From Atractiella rhizophila (Eukaryota), in NCBI GenBank assembly GCA_021432655.1, contig MU271606.1, forward strand, positions 1-40,082: 40,082 nucleotides of DNA. Reading direction: 5' to 3'. Numbering within the stretch: the first letter of the stretch is position 1; each line of letters opens with the position of its first letter. A model generated the notes under the pieces. The model did not search any database and had not been told where the DNA came from. It was given only the letters and a program-made list of their open reading frames with translations. A program made the position numbers and the translations under genes. Positions 1,937-36,813 of the stretch are shown here, in pieces.

Positions 1937-4035
<2,099 letters not shown>

Positions 4036-4871: not shown

Positions 4872-5242
4872 ATTTTCGGGCAGAATACAGTGGGTGATTG
4901 TGGAGGATTCACATATCTCGAGCCATCCTAAAGCGCATATAAGTGAGTATCTGAGCGTTGAGATTGAGTACAAAGAAAGCGTCGTTGATCCAACGTCGAT
5001 CAAGAGAGAAAGGGAGCGCATATTACACAGAAGAATTGATGCTTACAGTACTTTCAACGGCTCATTTTCCAACCTTGTCATCCCCAAAGCCTCCAAACCT
5101 TCCAACGGCGGTTGAAGTTGGTCGAAGCTTAGAACTCCTGATCTTGATCTTGATTCTTCTTTCAGATCACGATCACTCACGTGTCTGTTCGCGACGTCCC
5201 TGCAGTCGCCAAAGGAAACGACCACATTTCCTGTGAAGTCCC

Positions 5243-5749
5243 ATGCAGACAGCGACCAGCTTCGCGCACAAGCCTCCGCGGCTGAGCTCCTCTCTCTACT
5301 CCCCGCCCTCTCTGCCCGCTCCCCCAGTCTCCGCCGCGCTCTCCTCCCCGCCCCCTCCCCCTGCTCCGCCTCTCCAAAAGTTCCCCGTCGACACCTTACG
5401 CCCCCACATCCACCGAATACTGCACTCAAAGTTCTCCAGCAGCGCGAGCTACAATGCAGATAGGACGTGGTGCAAAGAAGTGGCGGAGGATATAAAGAAA
5501 CGCATGTTGGAGGCTGCACCGAAAGGGTGGAAGTTCGTCGTGCTGGTGGAGGTCACGGAGAACGCGGGACAGGGTGGAAAGTTGGATTTGGCGGGCCATT
5601 GGGATAGGGAATGGGATGTGGCGATCACGGAAAATTTAATCACAGTGTGTTGTCTCCTTCTGTGGGCAAACGGAGAATGATGGTTTCTCTACTGAAAGGA
5701 TAAAATCATCGTTTCAGTCATCGCTCTGGCGTTGAGGGTGCAGTATTAG
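5243..5749 (+). CDS. Tctex-1 family (dynein light chain-like) protein, copy 1
   Basis: KFPVDTLRPHI...CKEVAEDIKKRMLE...WKFVVLVEVTENAGQGG...HWDREWD, then intron 5645-5698 and last exon DKIIVSVIALALRVQY*. This matches the Tctex-1 pattern after a Pro-rich N-terminus. Confidence 0.85.
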
Positions 5750-5992
5750 TTCTTGGGGACACGATCAGCCACATCAAGGAGATTGGGTCGCCCAACGCGG
5801 CCTCAAATAGCTTTGGACCGCCGGAACAGGTCCCCAGGATGGAGGACAGGGAAAGGAAAGGAGTAGCTGATATGACAATCAAAGATTGGAGCTGAATGCT
5901 CGTCCTGCTTCTAGATCACGATCACTCACGTGTCTGTTCGCGACGTCCCTTGTCGTCGCCAAAGGAAACGACCACATTTCCTGTGAAGTCCC

Positions 5993-6499
5993 ATGCAGAC
6001 AGCGACCAGCTTCGCGCACAAGCCTCCGCGGCTGAGCTCCTCTCTCTACTCCCCGCCCTCTCTGCCCGCTCCCCCAGTCTCCGCCGCGCTCTCCTCCCCG
6101 CCCCCTCCCCCTGCTCCGCCTCTCCAAAAGTTCCCCGTCGACACCCTACGCCCTCACATCCACCGAATACTGCACTCAAAGTTCTCTAGCAGCGCGAGCT
6201 ACAATGCAGATAGGACGTGGTGCAAAGAGGTGGCGGAGGACATAAAGAAACGCATGTTGGAGGCTGCACCGAAGGGGTGGAAGTTCGTCGTGCTGGTGGA
6301 GGTGACGGAGAACGCGGGACAGGGTGGAAAGTTAGATTTGGCGGGTCATTGGGATCGGGAATGGGACGTGGCGATCACGGAAAATCTAATCACAGTGTGT
6401 TGTCTCCTTCCGTGGGCAAACGGAGAATGATGGTTTCTCTACTGAAAGGATAAAATCATCGTTTCAGTCATTGCTCTGGCGTTGAGGGTGCAGTATTAG
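5993..6499 (+). CDS. Tctex-1 family protein, copy 2 (protein identical to copy 1)
   Basis: Same exon structure, intron 6395-6448. Only synonymous differences from copy 1. Confidence 0.85.
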
Positions 6500-6991
6500 G
6501 TCTTGGGGACACGATCAAACACATCAAGAGATTAGGTCGCCCAACGCGGTCTTAAATAGCTTTGGACCACCGGAACAGGTCCGCAGGGATGGAGGACAGG
6601 AAAAGGAGTATCTGATACGACAATCAAAGATTGGAGCTGAATGCTCGTCCTGCTTCTACGTGAATCGTTCGCATTTGAATGCATGGGGGTGAAAATGTAC
6701 ATTCGGATCGAGCTGTTCTTGCAAGCCCTTAAATCCCACTGGCTGCCGCTGCGAGGATAAGATTAAGTATGCGTGGTCTGGGAAATCTTCGATTTTCGCA
6801 GTTGCAGATGATGGTCGATCTGCACCAACACAATTACTGTAATGGAGCCAGGCGAAGCAAAAAAGAGAGAGCCTCCAAATCAACCTGAGTGCCTTCTGCA
6901 TGTCACGAAGTTTTACAATTATATTTCTCAAAGACGACATCATTGCAGAAGTACACTAGATGAAAACATTAACAGATAACATGTCTATGCA

Positions 6992-9920: not shown

Positions 9921-11559
9921 TCAAAACTTGAACACAACAACCGTAACATCGTCCTGCATTTTGTAAGGGGCTTCCAATGTCAACCTCCAGCTGCACTGAT
10001 CATCATTCTTCCCCCCACAAGCGTTCCGAATGAGGCTGGTAGCCAGATTATCCTGGTGATCCGCAAACAGCATGTTCTGCATCCATGTATTTGCTTCCGA
10101 TAGCCGCTCATCCTCGGCTGGGTTCGACATTGAGAACGCTTTCGTATTGGACGGGAAAGACTGGTAAGCAAGTAGATGAATAGCTAGGCGATCGATTTCT
10201 CTGTCCGGCTGGAGATCAGTTGGCATAGAGGGAGCCTCTGTCTTCCCCACTCCTTCCTTTAGCTCTTCCGCCGGTTCTGGTGCCTTCTTCTTCTTGATCT
10301 TGATCAACTCATCTAGTCGCTCCCTTAGTCCATCCGTCGCAAGCACCAGAATCCGCTCCTCTCCGTCCTTAGTGGGATCGAATTTTTTGTGCATAACGTG
10401 AGGTTTTGCTGTTAGATATGGGGGCGTCAGGCAGCGGTGGAAGCTGTCGGGATAGCGTGGTGGAAACCCGATGCGAGAACGCTCGTGGAAGAAGATGCGG
10501 TCAGCATACACCTTCGGCAGCTTGAAGTGAAAGTCCCCCAATGCTGGAATGAGGTGTGAGTTGTGGTGAGTGTACTTGAAAGAAGGAGAAATACCTTTGG
10601 TAACCATGATCAACCCTAGTACCCGTCCATTCAATACGACTTCAGATTCACCGGGATGTAGTTCTCGAAGCTCGTCTGCTGCTTCTTTCTGAAAGCCGTT
10701 GTGCTGTTTCGCCAAAGATTCGACACTCCATTCATTATCGATCTTAACACCCAAAACTACTTTTATGAGTTTATGCTCTGAAGGAGACACCATAGTATCG
10801 AAAGAAGGGAACAACGAACTAGCTTCTGCATCTCCCACATTTGCAATCCACAAATTTTCCTTCTTTGCATCGAGGAGCGCAACAACAACTGTGCTACCGT
10901 TGACCACAAGTTCCGCCAATTGTTGATTCCTTTCATCAGCAAAGCGCCAATCCAGTTCTTGTTCCGTCATGGACCCATCCTCCATCCTTTCTTGGGGGAA
11001 GGTTTCGAGGAATTCTTGTGCGAGAGATTTATCGTAAGCCTCGATCGTCGATGAGAGAACGTTGGATATGTCCTCTTCAGTTGGTGAAGTTTTGGCTTGG
11101 AAGAGGACGGTCAGGGCAGTGGTCAATAACAGAGGAATGCGTTGAACTGCATCATTGGACACGAGAGGTCCGAAATGTCCTAAATATGATGTTTCTCCAT
11201 CAGCAGCCTTCTCCACGTGCGTTGTAATTGACCTGCTCACCATCGAAGACAAAACCTGCTACCCATTCTCCCTGGCCGAAATCCACCTTCTGAAAATTGA
11301 ATCGATCCTCATTTTCACACTTAGGCGATCCATCCTTCGGTTGGAATGATTTGGCTGAGATTGACACACCGTTGATCGTACCCTTCTTGGACGATCCAGC
11401 ACTTTCGAAAATTTGTTTGATGAGTGAAGCAGGGAGCTTGTGGTAGTTGAAGGTCTCTTCTTGATCATCCAACCATTCGTTGATCTCCGAAGCCTTGATG
11501 GTGGATTTTGGCGATTGGAGGCTACTGAGAGTAAGCTGAGCTGAGATGGTGGAAGTCAT
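9921..11559 (-). CDS. PP2C/PPM-family protein phosphatase (pyruvate dehydrogenase phosphatase-like subgroup)
   Basis: Motifs in order: CENEDR, FVFD/GHFG, NGSTVVVALL, LWIANVGDAEA, GRVLG..VTK/ALGDFHFK, TPPYLTAKP, ILVLATDGL, QDDVTVVV. Start MTSTISAQ at 11559. Confidence 0.9.
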
Positions 11560-17081: not shown

Positions 17082-19241
17082 TCAGGCGGTGGCAGGAACA
17101 GCAGTCGCCACGACCTGAGGGATGGCAGCCGTCGTGACTTCGGAAGCAGCAACCGTGCCCGCCCAATTGCCAGCGGAGACCAGTTCCTGATCCGCCAGTC
17201 CCTTAGGTGTTCCCAATCCGAGTTCATGGTCCTTCCAGATCCTATCCACCTTTCCTCTTTGGCCATGCCAACTCCAGCTCTTCCTCCTTCCAACCTCCAT
17301 TGAGAGGTGCGGCGAAGACCCATCGTGATCCACACTTGTTCCAGCGCATCGACCAACGTAGCAGTCTGGTCGGGGCTGTGTCCCGGCGTGGGCTGTTCAT
17401 TGGAAACAAGGCATCAATCAATAAGGGAAGGAATATCATTGGAAAAAGACGCACAGTGATCCTGAGCCTCTCCTCTCCCCTCGCAACAGTGGGGTAGTTG
17501 ATGCTTTGGACATAGATTCCATGTTCACCAAGGAGTCTATCGCTAGCCTCCTTCGCCTTCTCCGCATCACCAACGAGGACGGGAACGATGTGGGACGGGT
17601 TGGGGATCACCGGTATATCTCTTTCGGCAAGGAGTGCCTTCAGAGACAACACGTTCAGCTGCTGCTGGACACGATCTCCCAAGTAGGATTTCTGGTACGC
17701 AATAGAGGTTTGAGCACCCGCACAGATGGAAGGAGGCAAGGAGGTCGTGAAGATGAATCCCGGCGCGTAGGAGCGGATGGTGTCAATGAGATCGGCTGAG
17801 CCAGCGACGTAACCTCCTACAACCTAACCCAATTTGCACAATCAGTCACCTTCCTCATTTTCGAGACAAGAAGCTACGCACTCCGTACGCTTTTCCCAGA
17901 GTGCCGGTGATCATGTCCACGTCCGCCATCACATCTTCCCCAAGGTGTTCAGCAACACCAGCCCCCCTTCGTCCATACATGCCCACCGCATGAACCTCAT
18001 CGAGGAAAGTGATCGCCCCATACTTCTTCGCGAGCGCGCAGATCTCCTTGATGGGGCCAACGGATCCGCACATGGAGTAAACGGACTCGAAGGCGATGAT
18101 CTTTGGCGTCTCGAGGGGGAGGGAGGCGAGCTTGGCTTCCAAATCGGAGAGGTTGTTGTGCTTGAAAATCATCTTCTTGGCAGAGGAATGCTTGATCCCT
18201 TGTATCATGGATGCATGGTTCATCTCATCGCTGAGGATGACACATCCAGGCAGCTTGGAACCGAGGGTGCTCACTATGATCGATTATCAGTCTCTCTCGT
18301 TTCCAGGTGACGTGGACATCAAAATGGATCAGAAGTACGCACAAGTAGCATCGTTAGCCACATAACAGCTGGAGAACACAAGGGCAGCAGGTTTCTGATG
18401 CAAATCTGCCAATTCTGCTTCTAGAGCCAAATGCAACGCCGCATTCCCAGCAATGTTCCTGGTTCCTCCGGCTCCGGCTCCATACATGTCCAAAGTATCT
18501 CTGTTTCACGAGAACATTTCAATACCCACAGCTCTTCCAAGGCAATACTGAGAAATAACGCACTTCATACTTTTCAATACGGCAGGGTTCCTCCCCATCC
18601 CCAAATAATCGTTGGAGCACCAAACGGTCACTTCATCCGACTTATTTGCGGTGTGCGCCACTGGAAACTTGGTAGCAAGGCGGTTGATGTTGTTGAAGTA
18701 CCTGTAGGACTTGTCTGCGTGTTTCTTCTGCAATTCTGCCGCGTAGAACTGTTCATAGTCGAACTTTCCTCCCTATGACAGACCCACCAACAGAATTAAC
18801 ACCCACACTATGCAAGAAAAATACGGAAAATACATACGTGGCCACTGACGGGGCAAACGCTGCTGGCGTTAGCGCTAGCTGGTTGAGGGTGAGGAGGAAT
18901 AGGTTTGATTTCCTGCGCTCCAGCAACGGAAGCGTAATGCCTCCTCTTCGTCTCAGAGCTGAAAATTGCCGATCCTCCCGTCGCAGCAACGCATTGTCTT
19001 TTCGCTGCTTCGCTCAAATCGAGAGCAGGTGCCATGATTGGGCCTACATGTCCATGGTAACCACATCACTACCAGGTCTGCAGACTGAGAAAAAAGACAA
19101 ACAGGAACGTGCCCTCATCGCCAACCTGGACACTCCATCGATGGATTGGCTCGACATAGACCTAAGAGCAGCACCAGAAGTGCGACGGAGGTACGGGCAG
19201 TGCGGCTTGAAGCTGCTGAGCTGTTGAGTTATGGACTGCAT
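17082..19241 (-). CDS. HEM1: 5-aminolevulinate synthase, mitochondrial, with an apparent 1-nt frameshift near the 3' end
   Basis: [76 protein letters not shown] (PLP lysine) and [18 protein letters not shown] heme-regulatory motifs HCPY, SC/PI and VCPV lie in the N-terminal region. Confidence 0.96.
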
Positions 19242-20755: not shown

Positions 20756-22837
20756 TCACCATTCATCCTCATCATCCAGCCCCTTCACTGTCACCCCGAC
20801 GGCAGCTGTGACCTCCCACTCCATCACTAGCGTGGTCTTCTTTCCGGCTTCCAACTCGACCATCCACTCAATCCTCCCATCCGGCTTTCCACCCTCCAAC
20901 ATTGTTTCGTCACCCACAAGAGGCTTCCACCTCACCCACACCCCAGCAGATACGCTCGTATATTTGTTCGTCGCGGCTGAAAGGATGGTGGTGGTTGGAT
21001 CAGGCAATTGAGGCTTCGTGACCTTGACGTGAATACTTCCGTCGCTGGAGGTGGGAACACGATCGAGAACAGTGAAGTCTCTGACTGCCTGTGGTTTCGT
21101 ATTGTGAAGCACAATGCGCTGCGTGTAAGCGTGCGAGCGTGCTTTGGAGATAAAACCAGAAGTGGTGGAATGCTTCGTCTTTGGAGGATAGCTGACGCGG
21201 ATGGAACGGTCAGGGCTGTAGTCAAGACGAAGTCAGCGATGGGCAAGAACAAGCTTGCAGGGAGAGACTAACCCAAGGTTGAGTAAGAACTTCTCGTTCA
21301 AGTTCACATCTGCAATCTGAGATCTGGCAACAAAACTGCCGTCCAAGTAAACACTCGCAGGTCCCTTGAGCAACGGATACTCTGAAGCATTTTTGCAGAT
21401 AGCCTATCACCCAGCATGAGGATACTGTCACCAAGATAAATTACGCACATTCAGGAAGACCTTCTCTAGCATCCTTGGCACAACATACCACTCGAATGTA
21501 CCAGGCAGGTTCAACTCAGTGATAGCGATCGTCCTCCTTTCCAACACGCTTAAAAGGTCACCATCAATCTCTTCATGTTCCCAGCAGTCCCCTTCGAACA
21601 CATCCAACAGCTCCTCAAAGTCGACTTCATCCAAGCTTTTCAGACTTGTCACTCCTGGAAGCTCGAAGTGCGTCGAAAGGTGATTTGAGCTCTTGACATC
21701 TACATCTTCACTCCTCATGATCTTCCTATGCCTCTTTGCTCCACCTTTTCCGAGTCCTCTGCCGCCTCGTCCTGCTTGCCCACCACTACTACTCTTCCTA
21801 GCGATCCATCCTCCTCCCCCTTTTGTAGTTGGCATGCTGACAGGGTGGAGGATCCAAGGATCAAGATTAGGAGGTTTGGTCGAGACAGAAGGAATGGCAG
21901 TAGAGAGCGTGAGCTGTACATCTTCCCAATCCTCTACGACTGGAGTTAGCCAGTCGTAAAGAGAGGTTGCTGCGAATATGACGTACCACCAGTGGCCTGC
22001 AAAATAACAGCTTTGTATGAAAGCTTGAGCGGCTTCTCTTCTCCTTTCTCGTTGACCGTGGTCAGTCTCGCATCGTAGCGAGGCGTCCAGGACGCCTTGT
22101 CGGTGGCTATGTGCCGTCGTCAACAAATTTTAATGTAGGTGAGCAAGAAGGAAGAGTGACCGACCATAACTGAACGACAGCTCCACCTGCCCATCTTCTT
22201 CGCACCAAACGCCAACAGTAGCCTTTCCTCTCAACCTTTCTTTCTCCTCTCCTTTATCTTCGCCCTCCCTCAACCTCCTCTCCAAAGCCACCTTCTCCGC
22301 CTCCACCCTCTTCAGTTCCCTTCCTAATTCTGCCTCTCGTTCATACATAGCCGCACCCTCATCTTCTTGGTATTTCAACGCTTCCTTCAATTGTTCCACG
22401 CTCGCTTTTTCGGGAAGAACGGCGGATATGAAACTCGACAATACTTGCTTTCTCGCTTTGACGCGGTCGAGGGAAGCTTTGAGCCTTTCAATTTCTGCCA
22501 ACAGGTTTTTGTGTTCCGAAGACTCGTAAATGTTGATTCGCTTCACATCGACCACATGATAAGATACGTATTTGAGGATTGTGTCCTGCTCTGACGTCCC
22601 ATCTACCCTATGGTCGTGCTATCAGCTTAGTGTGCGAGAGGAAGACCGAGTGGAATACTTGAGCGTCTCCCTCATTAACGAGGTTGGCAAGTCCCCAACG
22701 ACAACTTCATTATCTCCCTTTTTTAACGCGCAAGTGACGGATCGAGCAACCTCAGCTCTCTTGGAATATAATGTAACTTCCTCGATGGGGAATGCCTGAG
22801 CGGAGACAGTAAGTTTGTGCGTCTCAGGTTCAGCCAT
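20756..22837 (-). CDS. DUF4140/DUF4139 (mucoidy inhibitor MuiA-like) protein, 6 exons, intact, with an embedded histone-tail-like segment
   Basis: IEEVTLYSKRAEVARS (DUF4140), a coiled coil, ASWTPRYD, QATG/EDWEDVQLTLSTAIP...LDPW, NASEYPLLKGPASVYLDGSFV, LG/PDRSIRVSYP, DRVPTSSDGSIHV and GRIEWMVELEAG. Five canonical introns keep the frame. Confidence 0.9.
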
Positions 22838-33210: not shown

Positions 33211-36200
33211 ATGTCAGCAAACGGTCAGGCGCGGCGCGGTGGCAATGGGGATGGCGAGAACGAGTCCTTCTTCAAGACGCTGGTCAAACAGCTTCCCTTG
33301 ATGGTTAGTCCTCCTCCTTTCCAGCATATGTGCAAGTTAGTTACCGATGAGGTGTAGATAGGAATGTGGATGCTCACCAACTTCCTCACCAAACAATTCC
33401 TCCCCCAACCCACGCCACAATCTAGCTCTCCTGACGTTGCAAACTCTCCTAACAGCCCAGGAGACCCCTCCGCGCTAACGCCGCAGGGAAAACCCAAGTT
33501 TGAGGTCTTCCCGGCTTGGCCGCTGGGAACAGAGCTCGATTTGTTTTTGGATCTCAGGACGGGAGAGGGCCAAAAGGTCCAGATGGATGGTGAATGGGTG
33601 AAGGGAGCTCACGAGGGAAAGATTAAATTTGGGGAGTGGGGGTGGGAGAGGACGTGGGAAGGGAGTTGGAAGGTGCCTAAGGTACGTACTTGGTTTGAGG
33701 CGGTTCATTCGGAATGTTGGTTGGTTGTGTTGCTCGTACCACGAGTTTGCGGTGAGAGAGGCTATTCTCCTGCCTCATTTCTGAGATTGCAGCGCAGGCG
33801 TAGAGCAGCTGGCGTATAAATTTCTCTTAGAAAGAGGAGAATGTGGACTTTTAATGGCGCAATTAAGGGATCGCGGGAGTGCGGAATGAAGTCGAAAAGT
33901 GGTGTCTTCATTCTCTTTTGTAACTGAGGTGAATCATGTCCTCGTTCGCATTCGAGAACGCAGCAACCTTTTTCCATTGCAGGCTGGGAAATTTTAAAGA
34001 CCAGGCGGAGAGGTGAAACATGGAGGGTCCCGCCTCGTATTGCATTTTACTTTTCGGGCACTCTAACATCGTCCTAATTACTAGAGCATTGAAAGACCTC
34101 AGGGTTATCTCTTCAGGATCCTGGCATTGTACTGCACTTGAGAGATTCGCTTTTTTCTCTCATACTCGAACGTCCTTCGTTCCCAACGAGGAGGGAGAAA
34201 GAAGGTGGAGCCATATCGTTTTTGGTCGACTGAGAGTCGCCACGCAACTTTTATTAAAGACACAAAGCGCCACCATCTATCCCCGGGATCTTTGGCTAGC
34301 GTCGTGCTCTCGATCGGTGTGGCGTTTTTATATGATTTCGGGTTCGGCTCCTTATAGGGTTGCATCAGTGCTTTCGACCTCTTGAACTTGGCTGCCCTAA
34401 ACCATGTTCCTTTCAAAGGTTCACCCGGTTTCATAACGGCCTGTGTGCTGCGTGGTGATGTCCGTATTCATCTTGGTGTGTGCAAAAAGATGCACTTTCT
34501 CCTTCAGCTTTGCCCACTCCTTCTTGGTTTACGCTTTCAATGTCAAAGACGGATACTGACAGATGAAGCGAAAGCTCGCTCGACCTGAGTTACAATCTGC
34601 CAATTTCTGTGAGCCAATAGAGCCGCGGACTACTTCCCGTTTTATGTACCTTGTTGTTTCCTCCTCCCGTTAGATGTAGAAGGGAAGGAGGAGTAACACC
34701 TTCGGACCTGTTCCATTCAGGTCTAACTCTTTTCTCAAAACAGTCTGTCCAACACAACTCCTCCCTTTCCCTCGACATCTACCTCGTCCGTAATGGGATA
34801 CCTCTCCACACTACACCTACGGGAGCTCCAGCCTGGCAACCATCGGATGTTTCATTTCGGCAAAAGTTACTCACACGCTTCCATCCCTTGAAGCGGGAGA
34901 GGAAGACGCATAATCTGTTTTCTGGCACTGAGAAGGAAGAGGAGATGGAGGTGGGACATTTCTTTCTACACTCGGAGCGAGATTTTGACTGGAAGCGAAG
35001 GAAGAATCGCAGGGACCGCCGCCGATCATCAGTTATTATCACCCCAACCTGACTCTCGCACTCGTCTCCGAAGCTAATATGTTAGACCTCTACTCCCTGC
35101 CGGCGATTCTGAGCCGCCGTTAGTCCTCCATTCCTTTCATCGGAAAGTTCATTTGATTCTCGAACCCTCCGTGAAGACGTATCCGTCGTTCCTGCTCCTG
35201 AAGGGACACAGAGGAAGGAATACTACCCCATCGTGTTCCCAAACGATTTTTGGCTCATGAAAGGTGCTATGGAACCTATCAATGAGACCATCTCGTGTGT
35301 CCCTTTATCACTTCTTCAATGCTTAAACATTGATGCTGGAAATGGGTTCTAGTGAGCTCCCTTTGAGGATCACGGTGCATCCCACTTCTTGGTTCAAGTT
35401 TCAGGTACATCATAACGATACCCGAGCAAAAAGACAGAGAGTTGATCTTTACCTGTCCGGTGATAGATGTATGCGTCTTTTCAGGAGTCTTTCGATCGAC
35501 AAGCCGAGCAGTCATCAAGTGGCACGAGTGAGCTGGACGAGATCAAACGAATGTTGATCGAGACCAACCCACTCTTGCTCGGGACTACTATTGTCGTCAG
35601 TATCCTGCATTCTTTGTAGGTTCTCCTGTCCTCATTGAGCGCTGCTGACATTGAGACTGGAAAGGTTTGAATTCTTGGCGTTCAAGAATGGTATGTTCTG
35701 AATCATCCAGGCTGGCAAACGTAACAAGGCATTGTTTGGGACAGATATTGTGCACTGGAGGAATAAGAAGGAGCTTGTTGGTGTGTCCGTCCGGACGATT
35801 ATCACAAACGTCGTTGTGCAGTGGGTGTCTCCACCTCTGCAGTTTAGGAATTGGATTGATTGACACGCGACCAGACTGATCATCCTGCTCTATCTTGTGG
35901 ACAACAACGAGAACACGTCGTGGATGATTCTTGCGTTCGCCGCCTTCCATTCATTTATAGCCTAATAAGCTTATTAAATGTCGTGCAGTGGGCAAGGCTT
36001 CGGACTCGTCATCGAAGCATGGAAGATCACCAAAGCCGTTTCTATCAAGGTGGTACCTTCTCCTCCTGGCTCCGTGCTACCATGGAAGCTAGACATACAA
36101 GACCGACATGTCTTGAGTGAAGAAGAAAAGAAGACTCAAGAGTATGATGCCCTCGCGTTCAAGTATGTGTCGTGGGTGGCAGGACCGGCTTTGGTCGGAT

Positions 36201-36813
36201 ATACCATCTATTCGCTCATTGCAGAATCGCACAGGGGATGGTTCGTTATTCACTTTACCTCTATGCGGAAGGGAATTCACATTATGCGTGTTGCAGGTAC
36301 TCGTTCATCATTTCAACACTTACCTCCTACGTCTATGCCTTTGGCTTTGTGCAGTATGTTCCCCTTCCACTTTACCTGCGTTGCTCACAGCAGCACTTGA
36401 ACAGGCTTATTCCACAGTTAATCATCAACTATAAACTCAAATCTGTGGCACATATGCCAATGAGAACCTTTACATACAAATTCCTCAACACGATCGTAGA
36501 CGACTGTAAGTTTTCGCAAATGTTCGAGGCCATGATCTGAAATGTGTCTCTTGTGGTGCAGTCTTCAGTTTCGTCATAAAAATGCCGCTACTACACCGGC
36601 TAGCTTGCTTTCGAGATGACATTGTCTTCCTCATGTACGTCTCTATTTCAACAGCCTGAACATTTGAACTAATCTGCGGAAAGTTTGATATACCAATCCT
36701 TCATCTACAAAGTGGATTACACGAGGGCGAACGAGTTTGGACAAGTTGGTGAGGGTTCAAAGGAAGCGATGGAGTCGAAAGATGAGAAGGGTGAGAGTAA
36801 GAAGGACCGTTAG
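33211..36813 (+). CDS. CLPTM1 (cleft lip and palate transmembrane 1) family protein, multi-exon
   Basis: SVQHNSSLSLDIYL, YYPIVFPNDFWL, ELDEIKRMLIETNP, FEFLAFKN, IEAWKITKA, EEKKTQEYDALAFKY, PQLIINYKLKSVAHMP, YKFLNTIVDD, KMPLLHRLACFRDD and YKVDYTRANEFGQ. Confidence 0.95.

Follow-up and report, generated by a model that had tools for sequence, protein, structure and literature searches.

Why should a DUF4140/DUF4139 protein carry, in its interior, a string that reads like the tails of histones H3 and H4? The question is raised by a gene in the first 40,082 nucleotides of contig MU271606.1, the whole of which was analysed and is referred to here as the window. We know of no role for DUF4139 proteins in eukaryotes, and to our knowledge histone mimicry has been described chiefly from viruses and a few short regulatory motifs. 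The insert in this protein is a genuine chimeric tail-like string, H3 followed by H4, and the loop that holds it is very probably a real histone-tail copy kept by selection. Our preferred interpretation, to which we assign a probability of roughly 0.4, is that the loop serves as a histone-derived importin-binding signal. Long, near-exact H3 and H4 copies form the most conserved part of this fast-evolving family of endogenous, expressed proteins, and the loop offers a concrete, testable handle on eukaryotic DUF4139 proteins.

Histone-like tails in a DUF4139 loop

The gene and the elements of its fourth exon were placed as follows.

20756..22837, minus strand: DUF4140/DUF4139 gene, 6 exons, 605 amino acids
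22837-22659, 22607-22165, 22106-21987, 21933-21449, 21403-21273 and 21215-20759, minus strand: its exons
20758-20756, minus strand: its stop codon
21449..21933, minus strand: exon 4, with anchor block, tail loop and acidic insert
21854..21907, minus strand: conserved DUF4139 block LSTAIPSVSTKPPNLDPW (LSTAIP...PW), the anchor directly before the loop, from alignments
21677..21853, minus strand: variable loop, 59 amino acids, 12 Lys/Arg against 3 Asp/Glu
21773..21802, minus strand: H3-tail relic, 10 residues, with Gln at the K14 position
21713..21772, minus strand: H4-tail copy, 20 residues, equivalent to H4 residues 4-23
21719..21757, minus strand: exact 13-mer, the longest identical string common to the loop and H4
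21536..21640, minus strand: acidic insert, 35 amino acids, 14 Asp/Glu and 2 Lys/Arg, predicted helical

The 30-residue peptide in question is the minus-strand translation of 21713-21802; the plus strand yields an unrelated string. For comparison of the H4-like part, P0025 (Ile-type) and P0007 (Val-type) were taken as H4 references. The 20-mer is identical to the tail of P0025 at 17 of 20 residues, with changes at the K5 (to R), K8 (to R) and L22 (to M) positions, and it has Ile at position 21, as does P0025. This agrees in every particular with the earlier note, which had read 17 matches of 20, 13 of them contiguous, and the same three substitutions. Given the window's own six-frame residue frequencies, the chance expectation for an exact match of 13 residues is approximately 3.9e-11 per window.

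The H3-like 10-mer gave a Smith-Waterman score of 28, which lies inside the background of tail-less proteins and is not significant alone. Its assignment comes entirely from orthology, because the Atractiella rhizophila protein P0005 has a near-complete H3 tail aligned there. P0005 carries RTRQTARKSTGGKAARKQLA in the equivalent loop, followed by a decayed H4-like GSGLGEVARYRKM; the former scored 88, and its best 20 residues differ from H3 2-21 at two positions. The H3 likeness claimed in the earlier note thus fails by score and stands by way of the orthologue. Decay of the tandem has been reciprocal: the window has an eroded H3 half, P0005 an eroded H4 half. Against real tails, H4-type loops across the family scored 65-109, and the remaining sequences 44 or less. 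With canonical H3 and H4, the family therefore shares strings as close as 17 of 20 residues to H4 4-23 (window) and two differences from H3 2-21 (P0005). In contrast to the canonical proteins, the DUF4139 tail is internal and is joined to no histone fold, and the K5, K8 and K12 positions of H4 and the K4 and K9 positions of H3 are not conserved.

The gene that encodes this string is complete. Five GT..AG introns of 51, 58, 53, 45 and 57 nucleotides were located, and splicing by coordinates produced a single open reading frame (ORF) of 605 amino acids. PF13600 (DUF4140) scored 39 bits on the first ORF piece (cut-off 27), and PF13598 (DUF4139) scored 38.4 and 51.6 bits on two exons (cut-off 31.8), while no histone-fold Pfam family was matched on any exon. 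Aligned end to end, the window protein and P0005 are 66.6% identical over residues 1-603, and in a tree the window protein is nested among fungal DUF4139 members. The window protein is a full-length DUF4140/DUF4139 member, and the description of an intact gene of this family without a histone fold holds.

Four public runs were mapped on the gene; all of this evidence consists of assembled contigs, so that depth is uninformative. The joints carried by contigs of run X3 coincide exactly with the five predicted introns, and one spliced X3 contig extends from exon 6 into the motif as far as 21751. A contig of run X5, a root metatranscriptome library, covers 21691-21855 and with it the whole motif. 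No joint inside exon 4 was seen in any of the four runs. The X5 contig has a single change in the motif, 21719 G>T in a synonymous Ile codon, which is too little for a selection test, and a DNA contig of X1 (possibly the sample behind the window's own assembly) spans 21259-22484 and shows no motif difference. The gene with the tail loop is expressed as RNA. As had been proposed, the 30-mer lies in frame within one exon, and its inclusion in the transcript is confirmed by the X3 joints and the X5 contig.

The position of the insert within the protein was also examined by alignment. Directly after the anchor block, length and sequence differ across the DUF4139 family, and in all tail-bearing members the tail strings lie 10-25 residues past the LxTxxP...PxLxPW block, in line with an initial placement just past an LSTAxP...PW block at a variable position. 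An AlphaFold2 model was made of the orthologue P0005, not the window protein, from a 70-sequence alignment (mean predicted local distance difference test [pLDDT], 85.2; predicted template modelling score, 0.74). In this model, pLDDT falls below 50 only at residues 269-277 and 285-330, where the insert is contained, and beta strands flank the loop on both sides. The loop is predicted to be accessible and disordered, exposure being what the earlier note had proposed to check by structure prediction.

The 35-residue acidic insert just downstream of the basic loop was seen in the window protein and P0005 but in no other relative, and might act as an intramolecular partner or mask of the loop. As a separate observation, several Agaricales proteins (P0086, P0095, P0100, P0119, P0088, P0103, P0017 and others) have an acidic-aromatic string, of PDEDDLDY or DEDDLNF type, right after the tail. 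It is conserved behind both H3-type and H4-type tails and could either pair with the tail by charge or form a second linear motif.

Recurrence and constraint across the family

Relatives were collected from a fungal sample that is biased towards Agaricales; counts for the family are those among the matches listed, and species names are as given by the source. A HMMER search with exon 4 returned 25 proteins, comprising 11 DUF4139 relatives, 11 real H4 proteins, 1 unrelated repeat protein and 2 others; for P0012 and P0023, the match was confined to query residues 53-75, as in the H4 rows. A word-indexed search with the exon alone returned one histone-fold protein covering 6% of the query, low-complexity words having crowded out relatives. 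Among the 11 DUF4139 relatives, P0005 is H3-type, P0008, P0017 (from Agrocybe pediades), P0019 and P0026 are H4-like, and six are without a tail. P0013 and P0029 are further Atractiella paralogues, both tail-less. A profile search seeded with seven fungal sequences yielded at least 65 proteins, chiefly from named Agaricales.

Tail cores were then tallied with the patterns GG[AT]xR[HY]R[KR]I for H4 and GGK[AR][AP]R[KR] for H3. The H4 core was present in 15 of 105 sequences (13 once two near-identical cluster mates had been removed), the H3 core in 8, neither in 82 and both in none. Half of the eight H3-type loops also retain the H3 2-8 part; the other four (from Galerina, Flammula and two from Gymnopilus) have the core only and are weak by score alone. 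The tail-bearing set comprises 11 named species plus the window's organism. One H3-type and one H4-type paralogue each were found in Agrocybe pediades, Psilocybe cubensis, P. cyanescens, Gymnopilus junonius and G. dilepis, while Hebeloma, Phlegmacium and Crassisporium have an H4-type copy only, and Galerina and Flammula an H3-type copy only, in this incomplete sample. Tail strings were not found in the sampled DUF4139 members of Moniliophthora, Wallemia, Termitomyces, Mycena, Caenorhabditis or bacteria. A metagenome scan for close relatives returned one locus only, a tail-less bacterial DUF4139 gene with a signal peptide.

To place the tails on the family's history, a tree of 73 rows was computed with the loop columns removed (IQ-TREE quick, LG+G4). 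All 16 Agaricales tail-bearing proteins fall inside one 18-member clade (100 by the Shimodaira-Hasegawa-like approximate likelihood-ratio test), whose two members without a recognisable tail are P0085 and P0111. The window protein and P0005 pair (100) and are sister to tail-less Atractiella paralogues (99), apart from the Agaricales clade. With its motif masked, the P0026 fragment is nearest (65-70%) to tail-less Mycena proteins. By these placements and that of P0008 (below), H4-type loops occur in at least three to four lineages, and the tree is compatible either with an old insert and many losses or with repeated gains.

The fullest H4 copy was observed in P0008, a 145-residue fragment in which the string runs from the S1 to the L22 position with one two-residue unit missing. 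Once the motif is masked, identity between the flanks of P0008 and every sampled family member is just 30-34%. Such distance suggests another acquisition, perhaps a more recent one, in a lineage that the sample does not cover.

Within the Agaricales clade, copies of the two types join genus by genus when the loop is set aside (Agrocybe, 100; Psilocybe, 99; Gymnopilus, 92), and forcing a single H4-type clade was rejected (log-likelihood cost of 252; P = 6e-6 by the approximately unbiased test). Gene conversion from which the loop is exempt would produce such a pattern, as would repeated duplication. From the genus-wise pairing and the rejection of a single H4-type clade it follows that both loop types persist despite homogenisation or re-duplication elsewhere in the gene.

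Conservation of the H4 motif was assessed in an alignment of nine full-length H4-type proteins only. Mean pairwise identity over its 13 columns was 0.84, against 0.52 overall, which ranks first among 534 windows of that alignment; the H3 core window is among the top 2 of 525. The window and Agaricales proteins are 30-34% identical overall, yet match at 10-12 of the 13 motif residues. Recurrence at the same loop under constraint, which the earlier note had set as its own test, is thus borne out by the relatives' cores.

Column by column, L10, G11, G13, G14, R17, R19 and I21 are invariant in the 13 H4-type loops, the G13-G14 pair being present in 13/13, A15 in 12/13 and H18 in 12/13. The K16 position holds Lys in 10 of 13 (Met in two, Val in one), and the K20 position Lys in 7 and Arg in 6, while Lys occupies the K12 position in 2 of 13 only (Arg in 5, Gln in 2, Val in 2, Ile in 1, Leu in 1). 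In the H3-type loops, the K14 position is Lys in 8/8 and GGKA is kept in 7/8; the K4 position is Arg or Met, and the K9 position Lys, Met or Arg. The conserved cores are accordingly GGKA[AP]R (H3 12-17) and LGxGGA(K)RHR(K/R)I (H4 10-21), and by these column counts those two segments, and not the classical modification sites, are under selection. In this respect the family is a natural experiment on tail residues detached from the nucleosome, in which those two segments matter and the classical sites do not. The earlier emphasis on specific modifiable lysines has to be given up: because the positions vary among loops, a conserved role as substrate or decoy for H4K12, H4K20, H3K4 or H3K9 enzymes is unlikely on present alignments.

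These data bear on two explanations that would deny the tail any specific meaning. Were the segment a captured piece of histone genes that survives as a neutral relic, or an artefact of assembly or annotation, the decay of one half in each of two Pucciniomycotina orthologues and the tail-less P0085 and P0111 in the Agaricales clade would find a ready place. Such an origin is scarcely credible for a segment that was seen in DNA and spliced-RNA contigs of independent runs, keeps the reading frame within a single exon, exceeds all other segments in conservation among lineages that are approximately 30% identical elsewhere, and occurs in at least three to four separate lineages.

The other explanation takes the loop for a generic charge patch that would bind nucleic acid, acidic lipids or the protein's own acidic insert, its histone likeness being a matter of origin. 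The composition of the loop (12 Lys/Arg against 3 Asp/Glu, with acidic segments after it) agrees with this, as do the unrelated basic modules in the same loop of other fungal paralogues. A Lys/Arg cluster or Arg-Ser tract was found in 19 of 38 tail-less fungal loops, compared to 3 of 16 bacterial loops, and in fungi the DUF4139 loop seems to attract basic linear motifs. Left unexplained by charge are the invariant uncharged L, G, G, G, A, H and I, the first-ranked H4 string across proteins about 30% identical, and the fact that two distinct exact tail types were kept in parallel, and a generic basic loop is therefore highly improbable. Arg-Ser repeat tracts as such were observed in 8 of the 38 tail-less fungal loops (e.g., P0080, P0092, P0101, P0109 and P0114).

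Candidate partners of the loop

If the loop is an importin-binding signal, selection would have retained H3 and H4 tail pieces, on a disordered loop at the surface of a cytosolic DUF4139 protein, as a short linear motif for karyopherins, that is, for the H3/H4 import receptors of the Kap123/Importin-4 class and their back-ups. The motif would use the same epitopes as the real tails. Two outcomes can be envisaged, in which either the paralogue would be carried into the nucleus or it would rival new histones for the importin. Nuclear import had been one option among several in the earlier note; it has moved to the front, with importin as the putative partner and import or competition as the presumed result.

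Structural work on the receptors provides the basis for this proposal. In co-crystals with Kap123, the ordered residues are H3 12-17 plus H3 21-26 and H4 13-20; H3 K14 occupies pocket 1 and requires small neighbours, and H4 K16 occupies pocket 2, with contacts made by R17 and R19 (PMC5677370). With Imp4, H3 12-15 alone is ordered, according to a review on histone import (PMC7752055). The loop cores coincide with the importin-ordered segments H3 12-17 and H4 13-20, including K16, R17 and R19. The Kap123 study describes a mild effect of K16A/Q on Kap123 binding, owing to the R17/R19 contacts (PMC5677370), which fits Met or Val at K16 in 3 of 13 loops with R17 and R19 invariant. Lys-to-Arg changes in the H4 nuclear localisation signal (NLS) are reportedly import-competent, as cited in PMC5677370, and this fits the K5R and K8R changes of the window.

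A Kap123 consensus has been published, namely a small residue, Lys, a small residue, at least six residues and Lys. The full consensus is present in the window loop and in 6 of 21 tail loops, compared to 0 of 51 tail-less fungal loops. That other basic modules are common in tail-less fungal loops adds weak context for an import signal. Considered as NLSs, then, the loops resemble histone tails recognised by Kap123/Importin-4 in that their cores are the importin-ordered segments and in that the window loop fits the consensus. They differ in that the DUF4139 signal sits in an internal loop of a beta-rich non-histone protein, whereas a real tail has a free N terminus, in that histone fold and chaperone context are absent, and in that most loops depart from the consensus.

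Several observations weigh against an importin as the partner. Fifteen of the 21 tail loops fail the bipartite Kap123 consensus, mostly at the second lysine, and in no H3-type loop is there a clear equivalent of K23. L10, G11 and I21 are invariant beyond the residues ordered in Kap123, so that a protein that reads H4 10-21 may be the partner instead of, or in addition to, an importin. Many chromatin factors bind the basic patch at H4 16-20, so that overlap with importin contacts is unspecific. In the window the H3 K14 position is Gln, and in Atractiella the H4 part has decayed; this reciprocal decay implies that neither half is indispensable in that lineage. The trees were "quick" IQ-TREE runs, and the constrained H4-type group was chosen after the first tree had been seen. 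Our literature search returned no binding, localisation or modification data for any family member, and the fold searches described below, having given no informative relative, supply no independent reason for a nuclear role.

The main rival to an importin signal is a mimic aimed at chromatin machinery, in which the loop would be a pseudo-substrate, competitor or docking site, in nucleus or cytoplasm, for readers of unmodified H3 12-17/H4 10-21. Candidate partners would be readers of the H4 basic patch and enzymes that acetylate or deacetylate H3K14 and H4K16, acting through recruitment or titration. Conservation, exposure and recurrence speak for this proposal equally as for the importin reading, and so do Lys at K14 in 8/8 H3-type and at K16 in 10/13 H4-type loops. 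It would also account for L10, G11 and I21, which are invariant outside the importin-ordered residues. Most of the modifiable lysines vary (K12, 2/13; K20, 7/13; H3 K4 and K9), which excludes many writers and readers, and K16 itself is Met or Val in 3/13. We consider a chromatin mimic possible, if on balance doubtful.

The histone mimics known to us comprise about 4-8 residues and are loosely similar to their models. DUF4139 loops share with the small antigen of hepatitis delta virus (HDV), the ISWI AutoN motif and the CODANIN-1 helix a short histone-like string and a presumed binding to histone machinery. Unlike them, DUF4139 loops copy up to 20 consecutive tail positions of both H3 and H4, and the copies are spread over paralogue pairs or a tandem, across basidiomycete orders. 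As precedents for a chromatin mimic, the literature reports the endogenous auto-regulatory AutoN motif of ISWI (PMC5305211) and the viral HDV antigen with BAZ2B (PMC6972770).

A further alternative makes the paralogues, or the tandem form, a regulator of histone supply. As a pseudo H3-H4 pair, they would titrate the cytoplasmic histone-handling chain of importin, Hat1-type acetyltransferase and chaperones, and so sense or buffer new histones. That five species keep exactly one copy of each type, that the window lineage joins both, and that both types persist despite genus-wise homogenisation of the remaining gene are consistent with such a role. CODANIN-1, which sequesters ASF1 via an H3-mimic helix according to a preprint (bioRxiv 10.1101/2024.07.10.602876), would be a precedent. 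Set against this, Hebeloma, Phlegmacium and Crassisporium have the H4 type only and Galerina and Flammula the H3 type only (the sample being incomplete), the reciprocal decay in the window protein and its orthologue speaks for a single tail being sufficient, and pairing of the paralogue proteins is purely hypothetical. We regard a histone-supply regulator as decidedly unlikely.

In its broadest form, the idea would be a dedicated basidiomycete "pseudo-histone" system, in which a DUF4139 scaffold with H3 and H4 tails imitates the soluble H3-H4 dimer and senses, buffers or gates histone supply, its tails having been gained or kept independently under selection. It would take the form of H3-type/H4-type paralogue pairs in Agaricales and of a tandem H3-H4 loop in the Atractiella lineage. 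Such a system is unlikely. Whether through import receptors or through tail readers, the loops could reveal a hitherto unrecognised level at which fungi, among them species that can be cultivated and manipulated genetically, control histone import or the machinery that reads histone tails.

Scaffold and surroundings of the gene

The window protein is a full-length member of the family listed as TIGR02231, "mucoidy inhibitor MuiA family" and, in Caenorhabditis elegans, "Protein F37C4.5". It shares with the family a predicted layout, taken from the P0005 model, in which a coiled-coil hairpin lies between beta domains at the N and C termini. Bacterial members differ from it by signal peptides and Pro/Ala-rich loops (P0018, P0031 and L001), and the C. 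elegans relative and most fungal paralogues by having no histone-like string. No description of histone-like loops in the DUF4139 family was found in the literature searched, subscription journals lying largely outside its coverage. Among the matches listed, F37C4.5 was named in omics contexts and mucoidy inhibitor in Pseudomonas. In Wallemia mellicola, the 758-residue P0049 has N-terminal thiamine pyrophosphokinase domains (PF04263/PF04265) fused to DUF4139, which may be a gene-model fusion or real.

Searches for a relative of the scaffold gave only coiled-coil noise with a sequence profile against the PDB, and Foldseek returned none at E ≤ 1e-3. Several candidates were set aside. OST1/ribophorin I was the top Foldseek match at 1.5e-3 with a TM of 0.13, and a wide VIA structure search matched the coiled-coil hairpin (residues 82-178) alone. 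Adaptor mu-homology domains (Z of about 6, residues 409-610) and aminopeptidase-N domain I and OST1 (Z of 5.6-6.0, residues 15-384) are within the range of common arrangements.

Neither a histone gene nor a second member of the DUF4139 family was found within the window. The neighbours identified by Pfam on raw ORFs, none of them histone- or import-related, and one duplication are listed here.

2031-2411, minus strand: quinolinate phosphoribosyltransferase
9921-11258, minus strand: PP2C phosphatase
17242-17823, minus strand: class I/II aminotransferase
34621-36400, plus strand: CLPTM1
5156-6658, plus strand: tandem duplication of approximately 750 bp

The 300-nucleotide cores of the duplication, at 5198-5497 and 5948-6247, are 97% identical, and a Tctex-1 dynein light chain domain is encoded by one ORF in each copy (5237-5680 and 5987-6430).

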